This document shows positions 616-5,186 of a DNA stretch of 26,287 nucleotides, piece after piece (within the stretch, counting starts at the first letter, position 1; every line of letters starts with the position of its first letter). The notes beneath the pieces are model-generated. The model saw only the letters and a list, made by a program, of their open reading frames with translations, was not told the origin of the DNA and searched no databases. Position numbers and translations under genes: made by a program. The DNA comes from a virus (Duplodnaviria > Heunggongvirae > Uroviricota > Caudoviricetes): IMG/VR virus record IMGVR_UViG_2531839144_000012, positions 1 to 26,287 of that record; one strand, 5' to 3'.

Positions 616-675
616 AAAGCCTTGCAAGCCATTGCGAGGCCTTATGTGTCTCAGTTTTGTCCCACCTTGTATTAC
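616..675. repeat. Copy 1 of a ~60-bp imperfect direct repeat; contains a 9-bp-stem hairpin (GCCTTGCAA-GCCA-TTGCGAGGC, 619-640) followed by T-rich tract
   Basis: Aligned by eye to 5128-5186 with about 7 differences over ~60 nt. Confidence 0.7.
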
Positions 676-1006
676 GACTTGCATAGCCAATGAAGATAAA
701 CGTGACGACAAACGGCGCAGCAGTCTTCTTTTCCTTCATACTTTCCCCATCCAGCATGCATACCTTTATGCCATAACTGAAGTTTATGTCTGTTATGAGC
801 GAGAAGCGGAAGTTCAACGTGATAAAGCTCAGGAACATTGTCGTTGATGATGATAAAGAGGATCAGACTAACTTAGCACTTCTCATCACGTTGATAAGGC
901 ATAGAAACCGAAAACACTATTGTGAATATCATTTCACTATAGTAAATTCAGGTAAGCTCTTTTCGTTCGTTATTACATAAAATAAAGTTCTCTCTAAGGT
1001 TGAAAA

Positions 1007-1450
1007 ATGTTAGATATCAGAATGTCACGACCATCTGAAGCATCAGAGATCATACAAATCTGGAAGAGTTCAGTGGATGCTACCCACGACTTTCTTACAG
1101 GTCATGACCGACAAGAAATCGAAAAAGAAGTTATCGGCTTTTTCTCAGAAACTCCTGTATGGGTTGCAACAAATCAGGATGACCAACCGCTAGGATTTAT
1201 GTTTTTGCATGAGGGGCATCTGGAGGCACTTTTTGTAGCAGGCTCTGCTCGCGGACTTGGCGTCGGAAAACGTTTGATCTCTCATGCACTGGCGCTGCAT
1301 CCAGAGCTAAGCGTTGATGTAAATGAACAAAACCAGCAGGCTGTAGGGTTTTATCAGCATATGGGTTTTCAGGTATCAGGGCGTTCCGAGCTGGATAATC
1401 AGGGAAGGCCATACCCCTTGTTGCATCTGAGAATGGCCAATAACATGTAA
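1007..1450 (+). CDS. GNAT-family N-acetyltransferase
   Basis: 147-aa ORF; acetyl-CoA-binding-type motif region LFVAGSARGLGVGKRLISHA and C-terminal GFYQHMGF typical of GNAT fold; alternative start ATG at 1022. Confidence 0.7.
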   Translation: MLDIRMSRPSEASEIIQIWKSSVDATHDFLTGHDRQEIEKEVIGFFSETPVWVATNQDDQPLGFMFLHEGHLEALFVAGSARGLGVGKRLISHALALHPELSVDVNEQNQQAVGFYQHMGFQVSGRSELDNQGRPYPLLHLRMANNM

Positions 1451-1470
1451 CCAATGTGGCAGAGAAGATA

Positions 1471-2055
1471 TCATTGATTTTTTTGGCTAAAAGCCACGAT
1501 GTAAGAACAGCTCTGCTCACTATCTGGATTGCTCATTTGGTACTCGCTTGCAAAGGTAAGGGCAAGACAGTCACCGGCACGTAAATGATGGGTCTGATTT
1601 TTGACTCGAAAATCAAGGCTGCCACTCATCATCCAAAGCGTTTGCCCGGAAAGATGCTCATTTGCGGAGGCGGGTATCGTCAGCTCACCCATTGCAGGGA
1701 TTTCAACTTTGATCAGTTCCGGGCATGCCCCCGCAGGAGACAAAGACCAACGGGTGATGCCTGATTGCTCATCCGTCCAGTGCTGTTGCTGATGAGCAAC
1801 ACGAACCAGGGAATTCTGATGTTGCTCAAGCTCTGCAAAGAGTTTAGATAGCGTTACATTCATGGCGTTGGCCAGGCGGCTAAGGATAGTTGCACTAGGG
1901 CTGGAGATGCCTCGTTCAATCTTACTAATCATGGCCTGACTGACGCCCGATCGTTGAGCAAGCTCTGTTACAGTCAAATTGCGAGCCTTCCTGTGTTTAA
2001 GCAATAAACGTGCAATATCGCTATCTACTATCTGATTTTTAAATTTTTTATCCAT
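1471..2055 (-). CDS. XRE-family HTH transcriptional regulator with C-terminal cupin-like domain
   Basis: HTH motif LTVTELAQRSGVSQAMISKIERG near N-terminus when started at MDKKFKNQ (ATG 2055..2053, preceded by GAGAGGG Shine-Dalgarno); the ORF track extension to 2238 lacks an RBS and looks non-coding. Confidence 0.7.
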   Translation of the reverse strand: MDKKFKNQIVDSDIARLLLKHRKARNLTVTELAQRSGVSQAMISKIERGISSPSATILSRLANAMNVTLSKLFAELEQHQNSLVRVAHQQQHWTDEQSGITRWSLSPAGACPELIKVEIPAMGELTIPASANEHLSGQTLWMMSGSLDFRVKNQTHHLRAGDCLALTFASEYQMSNPDSEQSCSYIVAFSQKNQ

Positions 2056-2359
2056 TTCCGCCCTCTCTTTCACCAACCTGATTATGCCATTACATAAATT
2101 GGCCTGAAATAAATGATTTTGTAAGTCTGTAAATTCACTACTCCTAAGCGCGGCACTTCGTTTATACGCACCTATGACCTTAAAATATGAGTTGGTAAGC
2201 TTAACGTCCGCTTTTGGCACATAGCAGACCAGAGACACTGGCGTAAAGCCATGGAGGATCGGTGGGAGGAGGTAAAAATCCTCTCATGCAAAAAATACGC
2301 AAAATCGATAACAGTTGGAAATCATTCAATACTCGCACTATCGGAAGTTCACCAGCCAG

Positions 2360-2393
2360 TCGTAGCACGTTCTTGCATACGACGTGGCTACGG
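2360..2393 (+). promoter_or_regulatory. Hairpin H1: 5-bp + bulge + 5-bp stem with 11-nt loop TCTTGCATACG
   Basis: CGTAGCACGT / ACGTGGCTACG pairing seen directly; homologous to hairpin at 3381-3412 with compensatory stem substitutions. Confidence 0.45.
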
Positions 2394-2583: not shown

Positions 2584-3357
2584 ATGGATATTACTGAGTT
2601 TCCTTCTGGAGTAATTGAACACCTTGGCTGGTATGTATACCGATTGATTGATCCTAGGGACGGAAGCACCTTCTATGTAGGGAAAGGCAAAGGTAACCGC
2701 GTATTTGCCCATATGCGCGGTGAAGTGGCAGCGGCTGATGATGACGAGTTACTGAGCAACAAGCTAAAGCAAATCAGAGAAATAAGATTAGCGGGACTTG
2801 AAGTTATCCATGTCATCCATCGACATGGAATGACTGATGAAAAGACGGCGTACGAAGTTGAAGCAGCACTTATTGATGCCTACCCTGGGTTAACGAATAT
2901 CATGAATGGTGCTGGCAGCAATGAATTCGGCGCCGCGCATGTCAAAGAATTGATAGCAACATATCAACCCGAAACCATAACATTTCATCATAAAGCATTA
3001 ATGATTTCCGTTAACAGAAGTGCAAAGGATTCAGAGCTTTATGATGCGGTTCGATTTAGCTGGCGCATCAATGCCTCGCGCGCCAGTCAAGCAGAAGTCA
3101 TTCTTGCCACTGTAAGGGGCATCGTTCGAGGGGTTTTTATTGCTGATAAATGGCTCAAATCAACACGTGAAAATTTCCCTACGATGAAATACTGGGACGA
3201 GGATCCTGACTTTGAGGCAACACAAAGTTCTCGCTATGGTTTTGAAGGTCGAGAAGCCCCACCTGAAATAGCAAATCTTTATCTTGGGAAAAAAATACCA
3301 GATGAATTAAGAAAAAAAGGAGCTATGTCCCCGGTCCGTTACTCACCTAATTTTTGA
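2584..3357 (+). CDS. GIY-YIG-like nuclease-superfamily protein (function unknown)
   Basis: N-terminal [29 protein letters not shown] fits the GIY-(10-11 aa)-YIG spacing with following Arg and His; ORF track start at 2533 is an alternative; followed 25 nt downstream by hairpin H2. Confidence 0.55.
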
Positions 3358-3380
3358 GTATTCAATTGATAAGATTAAAC

Positions 3381-3412
3381 CGCAGCACGTTATTGCATAC
3401 AACGTGTCTGCG
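3381..3412 (+). terminator. Hairpin H2 (CGCAGCACGT-TATTGCATACA-ACGTGTCTGCG) followed by TTTT; candidate terminator for the GIY-YIG-like gene
   Basis: Stem-loop and downstream T-run seen directly; same architecture and loop motif as H1. Confidence 0.45.
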
Positions 3413-3904
3413 TTTTCAACTCCGCCGCCCCCTATCATGATTGGACAGCACTTGCAAAAAAAAGAAATTAGTATTCTCCGCAGGACACCGGTCAGATAGT
3501 GCGGCAGATCAATGTCTGGTGAATATTGATGACCGCTGCCCGCTGATTCTATTGCCGAAACTGTGCGGGAAAAGATGTGGCAAGATATTGTTGGTAAAAA
3601 ATTCTCAGCGACTTTATGCCAGCAAATCAGTTTGCCTGGCATCCAGTATCGTGTGCGGTGGATAATGTCAAAAAACATGGGGAGTCGATTAAACAGGTAT
3701 AATCGTTAAAAACCTTCAAACTCCAGGCAAAACCCTATTTCATAGAACATGTACTTTCATCTGGTATACATGAACGAATTATGACTGCGTTAGTAAAATT
3801 ATCCTGGTTAAATTACAGGCAGAGATATATGTTCCAGTCCAGTGCGTTTTCGTTTACAATATTTATCTTTCATTATCACTTGACTTTATTAAAAGAGGTT
3901 CGTT

Positions 3905-4972
3905 GTGACGAATGTTTTTGGGAAGAGAATATATACACTGGATGTTCTGAGAGGATTTGCCGCACTTTCCGTTGTGTTATGGCATTGGCAACATTTTTTT
4001 ATGAAAAAGAATGCTGCATCTGACATAATCATAAACCGCCAACCTTTTTATGAATTTTTTTCCGTCTTTTATCATTACGGTTTATATGCTGTCGAATTGT
4101 TTTTTATGATTTCTGGATTCATATTTTTTTATCTATACGCTGACAATATACACAGCAATAAAACCTCAGCAAAAACTTTTATAGTTAACCGTGTCAGTAG
4201 ATTATATCCACTTTATATATTTACATTTGCTGTCGTGGCAATATTACAAATTATTTTCTTTAAAAGTCATAATTATTTTTTTGTTTATCCTATGAATGAC
4301 ATTTACCATGCCATTCTGAATTTATTGATGATTCAATCATGGGGATTTGAGCGAGGTTGGTCCTTCAACGCCCCGACATGGTCCGTGTCGATTGAAGTAC
4401 TTATGTATATGATATTTTTTATATTATGCAAGTTCACATCAAAAACAACATTCATATCAATTTTAATAGTTGCATTGTCGTACTACTTTTTCAAAATTAA
4501 CAATCCCATAATGATCGGCGCATTCTCTTTCTTTATTGGTGGTCTGACCTATAAAATTACGATTGCGGCCATAAAAAATATTAGCGCAAAGTTATTTTTT
4601 ATTTTTGCTTGTGTTTTTCTATTGATCTCATGGGGAGTTATCTTTACCCTGCAAGTAGCAGATATATTCTCAATTATCTTATTCGGATTTACCTCCATAA
4701 TCTTTTTCCTTGTATCAATTAGCGCAATACGAAACGATTTTGGAAAAAAAATTGAATGGTTGGGTGATATCAGTTATTCATCTTATCTTTTACATTTTCC
4801 TTTGCAAATCATTGTTGTTTATTTAGCTGACAAGATTGGCTATGGACGCGATCTTTTTTACAGCCCCAAGGTATTCATTTTATTCATGCTTACATTAATG
4901 GCAATTAGCTATATGTCATATATATTCATTGAAAAACCATCGCAACAATTCATCCGAAATAAATTTCATTAA
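3905..4972 (+). CDS. Acyltransferase-3 family integral membrane O-acyltransferase (OafA/Oac-like; candidate O-antigen/surface polysaccharide acetylase, lysogenic conversion gene)
   Basis: 355-aa highly hydrophobic multi-TM protein; N-terminal LDVLRGFAALSVVLWH and VELFFMISGF motifs typical of acyltransferase_3; GTG start with AAGAGG RBS; strongly AT-rich relative to the phage structural genes; position between tail fibre and att as in Sf6 oac. Confidence 0.8.
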   Translation: MTNVFGKRIYTLDVLRGFAALSVVLWHWQHFFMKKNAASDIIINRQPFYEFFSVFYHYGLYAVELFFMISGFIFFYLYADNIHSNKTSAKTFIVNRVSRLYPLYIFTFAVVAILQIIFFKSHNYFFVYPMNDIYHAILNLLMIQSWGFERGWSFNAPTWSVSIEVLMYMIFFILCKFTSKTTFISILIVALSYYFFKINNPIMIGAFSFFIGGLTYKITIAAIKNISAKLFFIFACVFLLISWGVIFTLQVADIFSIILFGFTSIIFFLVSISAIRNDFGKKIEWLGDISYSSYLLHFPLQIIVVYLADKIGYGRDLFYSPKVFILFMLTLMAISYMSYIFIEKPSQQFIRNKFH

Positions 4973-5127
4973 GTAAAGTCACTTTGCAATGATTAGAGTC
5001 AACACCTATTACTTTGACTCTAATCACACTGCATTTTATCCGTATGCTCTATATTCATAAAAATCGACATCAATATATAGAATGGAAATAAACGAAACCG
5101 CGTCACATCCTCAATATAGAAGCGTTC

Positions 5128-5186
5128 AAAGCCTTGCAAACCATTGCGAGGCTTTATGTGTCACAGTTTTGTCCTACTTTTATTAC
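5128..5186. repeat. Copy 2 of the ~60-bp imperfect direct repeat; hairpin GCCTTGCAA-ACCA-TTGCGAGGC (5131-5152) then TTTATGTGTCACAGTTTTG
   Basis: Aligned by eye to 616-675; lies between convergent acyltransferase (+) and tail fibre assembly (-) genes, so likely also a terminator. Confidence 0.7.

Follow-up and report, generated by a model that had tools for sequence, protein, structure and literature searches.

Does a pair of direct repeats of about 60 bp, enclosing 4.5 kb of accessory genes at the end of a prophage, record one insertion of that cargo, or did the two copies arrive apart? The question is raised by a stretch of 26,287 nt from a tailed phage (Caudoviricetes; IMG/VR record IMGVR_UViG_2531839144_000012, positions 1-26,287; this whole stretch is called the window here). 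Copy 1 of the repeated element lies in the flank of the phage attachment site (attP) for the tRNA-Thr gene thrW, copy 2 beside the tail fibre assembly gene (tfa). The original prediction held that the repeats delimit one acquired cargo unit. We favour another answer, with a probability of roughly 0.75: the two are copies of one conserved element of lambdoid phages, joined through modular assembly, and not the footprint of one insertion. Copy 1 would have arrived with the thrW attP module and copy 2 with a cassette carrying an acyltransferase gene; given separate arrivals, the pair would be a by-product of modular assembly. The 4.5-kb island would then consist of four or more cassettes in a row, each assorting independently (GNAT plus regulator, linker, GIY-YIG, acyltransferase with copy 2), set apart by a small repertoire of conserved palindromic boundary elements.

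The repeats themselves were confirmed as two imperfect copies of about 60 bp in the same orientation, by alignment and by shuffling. Positions 616-675 and 5128-5186 align locally with one 1-nt gap (BLAST, 90% identity over 60 columns) and form the largest direct repeat of the window; the pair scores 78.8 bits, against 25.6-31.9 bits for the best off-diagonal match in 30 dinucleotide-preserving shuffles (BLAST). The degenerate core pattern has two matches in the window, both of them the repeat copies (0 expected, 100 shuffles). Copy 2 stands beside tfa as described, ending 47 nt from the stop codon of tfa (5233); it begins 155 nt past that of the acyltransferase gene (4972). Copy 1 had been placed just inside the att core; it begins 76 nt from that core, in the attP flank, and falls in window 488-664, which is 96-97% identical to the attP flank of phages SfII, SfV, SfI, and SfIV.

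Three kinds of comparison indicate that the copies travel with different modules: their identities, relatives at other att sites, and relatives of tfa. Copy 1 is 98.5% identical to the SfII copy and 98.6% to the phage 21 copy, and ~90% identical to copy 2. Relatives at dusA, tRNA-Pro, icd, and a BCCT-transporter site carry GIY-YIG, acyltransferase, copy 2, and tfa without copy 1, and there is no tRNA core beside copy 2 in the window. A tfa relative is present in 62 viral loci, and only the ten of these with the acyltransferase have the element after tfa. In ~45 loci with a tfa 88-96% identical and no acyltransferase, no copy follows tfa within up to 7 kb, and the tail-module homology to the window stops at 5258-5269, inside tfa. 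None of the three boundary elements described in this text was found after tfa in the tfa relatives without copy 2. On these sequence comparisons, copy 1 appears to belong to the thrW attP module (492-813), and copy 2 appears to travel with the acyltransferase cassette (~3418-5269).

Direct repeats made by an insertion are expected to be mutually closest and to leave a single copy at the empty site; the window pair shows neither. An empty site with att, element, and this tfa in succession gave no contiguous match in 5,426 Escherichia coli genomes (queried with a synthetic fused sequence), nor in the 62 viral loci. The model behind the original prediction, in which an ancestral tfa-element-att arrangement took up the whole 4.5-kb cargo within the element and so duplicated it, does draw support from other phages. 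In mEp043 and HK542, both thrW-integrating, int is followed by attP and a single element, with tfa or a tail fibre gene converging on it from the other side and no cargo present; the single copy without cargo that the prediction had suggested looking for was thus found. Different cargo between two copies was found as well. In one locus (L129) the thrW core and a copy of sequence class A are followed by 5.7 kb that include genes for a ParA-like ATPase and for a 649-aa protein, and then by a copy of class B, which faces a tail fibre gene; in three others (L027, L022, L087) a 190-aa gene lies between a class A and a class B copy; and related prophages vary their cargo between att and tfa. At deeper divergence, moreover, mosaic breakpoints match the element edges. 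Against these three points, which all support a single insertion, stand the far greater closeness of copy 1 to its counterparts in SfII and phage 21 than to copy 2, the occurrence of copy 2 without copy 1 at other att sites, its absence from the ~45 close tfa relatives, the lack of an empty site in the 5,426 genomes, and an island that consists of separately assorting cassettes. The single-insertion model is very unlikely and largely refuted for this lineage. The claim that the repeats delimit one unit fails on copy 2 without copy 1 and on the cassettes; the claim that the cargo was acquired by recombination within the element is contradicted by the copy identities, by the missing empty site, and by cargo breakpoints of close relatives, which lie outside the element.

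The element occurs far beyond this prophage. It was present in 229 of the 230 sequences collected when profiled (two viral-contig scans plus a profile search), a fraction that is not a prevalence, most of these sequences having been retrieved by matching the element itself. In E. coli it occurs in 4,059 of 5,426 genomes, at 1-4 places each (median 1). Copies lie directly past int and attP in SfII, P22, phage 21, HK542, mEp043, and JEP4; the phage 21 copy has this position despite a different integrase and the icd att site. Among the collected loci, a thrW core lies 121 or 210 nt upstream of the element, or an integrase end 3-27 nt upstream, and these integrases belong to at least three Pfam families, the P4 type included. 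In Sf101 the copy lies between the integrase region and oacB, with the integrase on the opposite strand. In lambda the order is the tI/sib hairpin, a degenerate homologue of the element, and a flank homologous to window 673-810. In E. coli K-12 the element marks the right end of the cryptic prophage DLP12, between envY and ompT (L230, a K-12 derivative, 4501-4559, 100% identical over 59 nt); ompT and appY separate it there from tfa remnants. One contig (IMGVR_UViG_2617270968_000003; L059/L075) carries two units of att core plus element ~10 kb apart, one of them after an integrase, and looks like tandem thrW elements, another route to direct repeats of the element.

A repeat of this reach might be a genome-wide one of the repetitive extragenic palindromic (REP) or enterobacterial repetitive intergenic consensus (ERIC) kind, unrelated to the island; it has a palindromic structure, and most E. 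coli genomes carry it. Such repeats come in tens to hundreds of copies per genome. With 1-4 places per genome (median 1), no Rfam match, and examined contexts that are all prophage ends or positions beside int/att, this explanation is refuted and has practically no probability left; it was also the case that had been named as fatal to the original prediction.

A coding or protein-binding origin fares little better. The element could be the 3' end of a minus-strand membrane-protein gene, or a box of the type bound by CII (TTGC-N6-TTGC). A minus-strand open reading frame (ORF) does run into copy 1, its counterpart in phage 21 is annotated with two 'CII binding sites', and TTGC-N6-TTGC is present in both window copies. 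Copy 2, however, has stops in that frame, and the mEp043 element starts 14 nt from the tfa stop. The commonest class of the element reads TTGC-N6-GTGC, with the box not conserved, and the TTGC repetition follows from the palindromic TTGCAA in the stem. Both readings were rejected on the frame stops, the mEp043 spacing, and the unconserved box, and we give them hardly any credence. The ORF in question (605-838, - strand; internal Met at 737) has a hydrophobic stretch (MKEKKTAAPFVVTFIFIGYA...); its phage 21 counterpart is annotated 'putative membrane protein', and an analogous ORF lies in the homologous flank of lambda.

What unites the loci is the element and little else. Of 15,576 pairs of distinct element-bearing loci, 78% have only the element in common, and similarity ends 10-20 nt to the left and 30-40 nt to the right of its loop. 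In the window, homology of the SfII type extends over 492-664 and homology of the phage 21/lambda type over 605-810, and what the two have in common is the element itself. Modules that had recombined at a short stretch present in both would be expected to leave such a pattern. Recombination between short diverged patches is known for Rad52-like phage recombinases, with ~30 bp as the minimum for Red-beta (PMC3945230).

The conserved element is ~55 nt long and consists of an A-tract, an 11-bp stem extendable to ~17-18 bp, a T-tract, and a conserved CAGTTTTGTC tail. Element copy 1 (E1; 606-675, + strand) has its hairpin at 610-649 (9-bp inner and 8-bp outer stem), followed by the tail CTCAGTTTTGTCC; element copy 2 (E2; 5118-5186, + strand) has a hairpin core at 5128-5155 (12-bp stem), followed by the tail ATGTGTCACAGTTTTGTCC. 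Both fold as hairpins on the + strand (E1, -23.1 kcal/mol, z = -3.05; E2, -22.2 kcal/mol, z = -2.89). Over 104 distinct versions, 81.7% of the cells of the 18-pair stem are paired, compared with 20-52% in controls with the partner shifted by 1-3 columns; compensatory pairs occur at 13-42 (CG 86, UA 13) and 12-43 (AU 63, GU 27, GC 9). The hairpin is stable on both strands. Both window copies are of class A, in which the int-sense strand is favoured (-20.2 vs -15.6 kcal/mol), and other sequence classes fold slightly better on the strand opposite to int-sense; since no strand is universally favoured, no one-strand RNA is claimed.

Several features recall an intrinsic terminator. The stem-loop contains G and C and is stable above chance. 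Its position agrees too: in mEp043, HK542, and JEP4 the element lies between int and a converging tfa or tail fibre gene, and in the window E2 lies between the convergent acyltransferase and tfa genes. A terminator scan matches 619-640 (E1, + strand only). The U-rich tract expected directly 3' of the stem is interrupted in every case: CUUAUGUGU (E1) and UUUAUGUGU (E2) on the + strand and UUUACAUGUUUU (E1) and UUUGAACGCUUCU (E2) on the - strand. In SfII (KC736978) the same bases, between int-attP and gtrA, are annotated 'putative rho-independent terminator'. No Rfam match was obtained over window 1-7000 at E <= 1. From the A-tract before the stem, the T-tract after it, and the site between convergent genes, we infer that the element is most likely a bidirectional intrinsic terminator or insulator. 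A hairpin of terminator type with its usual place between attP and tail fibre or tfa had been proposed in the original prediction; mEp043, HK542, and the SfII annotation bear this part out.

A more specific role would be that of a retroregulator of int, of the lambda sib/tI type, for copy 1; it is compatible with the terminator reading. Initiated at the int promoter, int transcripts would stop at the inner hairpin, transcripts reading through under antitermination would form the ~17-bp stem for RNase III, cleavage would destabilise int mRNA, and integration would part the element from int. The geometry is lambda-like, with int, attP, and element in succession on the int-sense strand; the T-tract of the inner stem comes before the 3' half of the extended stem; the outer stem covaries, with G.U pairs that are possible only in int-sense RNA; and class A copies fold better on that strand, by the energies given above. 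The lambda sib/tI, however, is another hairpin, and the lambda homologue of the element follows sib in a degenerate form (two mismatches) without the tail. In other sequence classes the opposite strand gives the slightly better fold, no int lies upstream of copy 2 or of several further copies, and no literature was found confirming a sib function in P22 or the Sf phages. By analogy with lambda, a sib-like role of the att-proximal copies is possible, though we would not expect it.

In the explanation we favour, namely two copies of a conserved element brought together with their modules, the element has its normal site just past attP, on the transcript of int and at the meeting point of int with the convergent late tail-fibre/tfa genes. 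At this site it would most likely act as a bidirectional intrinsic terminator or insulator. Being conserved amid unrelated flanks, it could also offer phage recombinases a patch at which to reassort modules, as the mosaic pattern suggests. A number of observations weigh against this explanation. The cargo breakpoints of close relatives lie at ~814, ~2203, ~3418, and ~5260, none of them inside the element. The longest unbroken run of identical bases between the two window copies is 12 nt, which makes this pair a poor recombination substrate. Much of the covariation may represent a few events inherited by sequence classes. As to termination, copy 2 was not flagged by the terminator scan, the T-tract is interrupted (CTTATGTGT / TTTATGTGT), and a simple terminator leaves the conserved CAGTTTTGTC tail without explanation. 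K-12 Term-seq lists no 3' end for envY, that is, for the copy between envY and ompT (PMC7815308); this absence is uninformative, and envY was probably silent under the Term-seq conditions.

Comparison with relatives divides the island into five blocks. Block A (492-813) comprises the att core, the attP arm, copy 1, and the lambda-shared flank; block B (~815-2202) is a hypervariable slot, here with the GNAT gene and the XRE regulator; block C (2203-2396) is a linker also found in the phage 21 b region; block D (2375-3418) holds the GIY-YIG gene; and block E (3418-5269) holds the acyltransferase gene, copy 2, and the last tfa codons. The blocks assort independently: two loci (L275 and L277) have block D without block E, and a third (L280) has other cargo with one att-proximal element copy. 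In relatives, the slot of block B carries SIR2, lipase, kinase, DUF6650, a 'lysogenic conversion protein', or hypothetical proteins. The GNAT plus regulator block recurs with 97.6% identity in the nin/Q region of phage Evi, and the acyltransferase cassette (~30% G+C) is present or absent as a block; both behave as morons. In Evi (L135, LR597642) the GNAT plus XRE cassette occupies 3993-5434, between the replication genes and MokW/Q, and its identity at so distant a position indicates that the cassette moves as a unit. The last 8-12 tfa codons switch along with the downstream cassette (L231-L292), which makes alternative tfa C-termini part of the exchanged module. The idea of a moron insertion hotspot holds as far as variable cargo goes; the varying slot (~815-2202), however, is bounded by other inverted arms, not by the repeat pair.

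A second boundary element, hairpin-2 (GCAGCACGTTNTTGCATACRACGTG), flanks the GIY-YIG gene as direct repeats at 2362-2386 and 3382-3406 (+ strand). It also flanks restriction-modification (R-M) genes plus GIY-YIG in another locus (L010), and ea47 in lambda (22580-22604 and 24169-24193), where one copy lies just after the lambda tfa; hairpin-2 around ea47 indicates that the lambda b region uses the same boundary elements.

The arms of the slot, at 788-814 and 2203-2229, are an imperfect inverted repeat of 27 nt with 81% complementarity (0 matches expected by chance). Relatives diverge exactly after ...GAGCGAGGAGCGGA and reconverge exactly before TCCGCT...GGCACATAGCAGAC. Each arm is itself an imperfect palindrome, with half-sites of 8-9 bp around a centre of 6-8 bp. 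Arms measure 23-27 nt and are heterotypic, with a GAGCG centre at one end and a GTGCC centre at the other; in the window, the left arm (788-814, + strand; inverted-repeat search, motif search, and junction alignments) is of the GAGCG-loop type and the right arm (2203-2229, - strand; inverted-repeat and motif searches) of the GTGCC-loop type. The GNAT plus regulator cargo has both arms in the Evi nin/Q region too, and homology spans from arm to arm.

The arm motif occurs in at least 119 viral stretches, plus many genera of Enterobacterales, where ~2 matches would be expected by chance (an estimate from pattern degeneracy and collection size). It also occurs, far above chance, in Alphaproteobacteria (Pseudolabrys, Xanthobacteraceae) and in metagenome-assembled genome contigs of Nitrosomonadaceae (L409-L488), matches that may be unrelated conserved sequence. 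There are 103 convergent arm pairs around 101 distinct inserts, with a spacing of 322-4,682 bp and tandem arrays included; ~95% of the pairs combine a GAGCG centre with a GTGCC centre, pairing statistics that come from a biased sample, the loci having been gathered by matching the motif. Information content is restricted to the arm. The 153 cargo ORFs form 104 clusters, which include PD-T7-1, PD-T7-5, ThsA/SIR2, AriA, LmuA/B, GajA-like, PtuA, and AbiL, as well as type IIG and ISP restriction enzymes and HEPN, TIR, deaminase, GNAT, MFS, and LysR proteins. Of the 75 Pfam families matched by the cargo, the 25 best represented include no transposase.

Within the arm, the point at which identity is lost depends on the comparison. 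In pairs with the same context and different cargo it is lost at arm positions 16-17 (218/467 pairs), and in pairs with the same cargo and different context at about position 8 (9/20), which argues for an outer half-site proper to the slot and an inner one proper to the cassette, with the switch mapping within positions 9-15. No target-site duplication was found at the arms, and no precise empty slot in the 5,426 genomes; only deletion variants without both arms were found (~17 genomes). In E. coli LD22-1 (L529, 3560-3600), as in ~16 further genomes, window positions 762 and 2219 have been brought together by a deletion at a short microhomology; in LD22-1 the next slot, bounded by hairpin-2, holds R-M cargo. 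A DDE transposon or mobile insertion cassette was considered for the arms and rejected: there is no flanking duplication and no precise empty slot, and the outer half varies with context.

The slot cargo might be swapped by site-specific recombination, with the 23-27-nt arms as core-type sites. Their differing centres (GAGCG vs GTGCC) would favour double-reciprocal exchange over excision. The large number of distinct inserts in mostly heterotypic pairs, the restriction of information content to the arm, its split into outer and inner half-sites, the same cargo between arms at two unrelated genome positions, and the tandem arrays without target-site duplication or precise empty slot all speak for it, as does the absence of transposases from the 25 best-represented cargo families. 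Homologous recombination at a short conserved patch, however, predicts the same junctions, the centre being the sole invariant stretch. The arms could also be kept for a role in RNA or in transcription, the orientation of the cargo shows no more than a weak bias with respect to arm type (58:27), and the sample, collected by motif, is biased. Inverted half-sites around a 6-8-bp centre with a switch point at 9-15 would look the same after homologous exchange; judged from these alignments, the arm pattern would fit both homologous exchange at a conserved patch and a site-specific exchange of cassettes at heterospecific sites, and we think the latter unlikely on balance.

The same caution applies to a wider picture, which we put forward as a speculation. 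The accessory region of lambdoid prophages could be built from exchangeable cassettes edged by a few conserved palindromes, with the arms as heterospecific recombination sites. The outer half-site would be that of the slot and the inner one that of the cassette; unlike centres would lead to double-reciprocal swaps of defence and conversion genes between slots and between phages, as a counterpart in nature to recombinase-mediated cassette exchange, and the 60-nt element would be a further member of the boundary repertoire. No published description of arm-bounded cassettes in lambdoid phages was found in an incomplete literature search.

The remaining features of the window agree with a prophage end at thrW. 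The tail region lies on the minus strand; its last gene is tfa (5233-5652, - strand; Pfam Caudo_TAP), with homology to acyltransferase-less relatives ending at 5258-5269, and the low-GC accessory genes follow. In the G+C profile of the window the island has 30-49%, compared with 52-62% for the tail genes. Pfam bears out the cargo genes named in the original prediction: a GNAT acetyltransferase (1007-1450, + strand) and an HTH_3/XRE-family regulator (1471-2055, - strand; HTH_3, E = 7e-17), the slot cargo shared with Evi; a LEM-3-like GIY-YIG protein (2584-3357, + strand), conserved in the prophage family and independently assorting; and an acyltransferase of family 3, O-antigen-acetylase-like (3905-4972, + strand; ~30% G+C; Acyl_transf_3, E = 2e-24). 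The conserved linker (2230-2396, + strand) contains copy a of hairpin-2 (2362-2386) and is also present in the phage 21 b region and in three other loci (L010, L271, L280). This non-coding linker (2203-2396; homologues L006, L008, L011) carries in PGAP/NCBI annotation the label of a partial 'capsid protein' pseudogene, a call that is probably spurious. Copy b of hairpin-2 (3382-3406, + strand), a direct repeat of 2362-2386, is followed by TTTT and is terminator-like.

Beyond the accessory genes lie the conserved flank (673-787, + strand), shared with lambda (27323-27464) and phage 21-type phages and overlapped by the small minus-strand ORF that runs into E1, and the attP arm segment between core and E1 (541-605, + strand), common to thrW phages of the SfII/SfV/P22 type (492-664 vs SfII, L002, 97%). 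The att core at the tail end of the prophage, read directly from the letters, is a 46-bp 3' fragment of thrW (494-539, - strand), and its stretch is 96-97% identical to the annotated attP of SfII, SfV, SfI, and SfIV. ARAGORN found no complete tRNA; only the 46-bp core is present. A 46-bp att site has been described (PMC3851460). Directly past the core follows the N-terminus of a P4-type tyrosine integrase (1-339, - strand; ORF with Pfam Arm-DNA-bind_3, E = 9e-24), which indicates a second integrative island in tandem at thrW; this integrase is part of the neighbouring island and not of the prophage.

The repeat taken alone is ordinary, a conserved terminator-type hairpin that is present twice because two carrier modules joined. 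The element helps to explain how att-int modules and cargo reassort among lambda-, P22-, HK97-, and SfV-like phages. The arms, which in other prophages hold ~100 different defence-rich inserts, matter more than the repeat; they are a concrete, mutable sequence for testing hotspot turnover and a simple motif for finding new cargo.

Some of this is established, namely the thrW cargo site, morons, mosaic joints, and the terminator prediction in SfII; the wide distribution of the element, its covariation, and its second copy were not described in the literature found. The closest counterpart is the SfII putative terminator (KC736978), the same element (98.5% to copy 1) in the same place relative to int, attP, and cargo, as a predicted annotation in one genome. 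Copy 1 and its homologues resemble lambda tI/sib in lying downstream of int across attP on the int-sense strand, where integration parts them from int, and in being a hairpin whose extension needs read-through sequence; copy 2 does not share that position. There is no sequence homology, the lambda sib/tI being a TTAGCGCAAG...CTTGCGCTAATTTTTT hairpin with the element homologue separate downstream, and unlike sib the element also occurs without int upstream (copy 2; K-12 envY-ompT) and folds on both strands.

Moron and linker concepts, reportedly due to Juhala/Hendrix 2000 and Clark 2001, cover autonomous low-GC units bounded by hairpins and short conserved patches at mosaic joints, both of which are seen here; the difference is that a few boundary elements (the element, hairpin-2, and the arms) recur at many joints. 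Cargo without a mobility gene of its own between short imperfect palindromes is also known from integron attC cassettes, mobile insertion cassettes, and lox/FRT cassette exchange, which we take as a lead only; further points of likeness are ends that differ in their central region and the occurrence of arrays. Unlike in those systems, no integrase or transposase is tied to the arms, and neither a GTTRRRY core nor a target-site duplication is present. Experiments have shown that mosaics form at short diverged homologies; for Red-beta ~30 bp is quoted, more than the length of the arms (PMC3945230). With the thrW Shigella phages SfI, SfII, SfIV, SfV, and SfX the prophage shares the same core and flank with copy 1 and the placing of cargo between tail genes and attP, in their case the serotype-conversion genes gtr/oac; cargo beside int-attP in thrW phages is textbook knowledge (PMC3851460). 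Here, GNAT plus regulator, GIY-YIG, and acyltransferase replace gtrABC, and a second element copy is present. The defence hotspots of P2 and P4 prophages likewise hold highly variable, defence-rich cargo at fixed positions. They are defined by conserved flanking genes and adjoin cos (Rousset 2022, PMC9122126; Vassallo 2022 preprint), and their mechanism of exchange was stated by the authors to be unknown (PMC9122126). The slot described here differs from them in having nucleotide-precise edges, formed by heterotypic palindromic arms.

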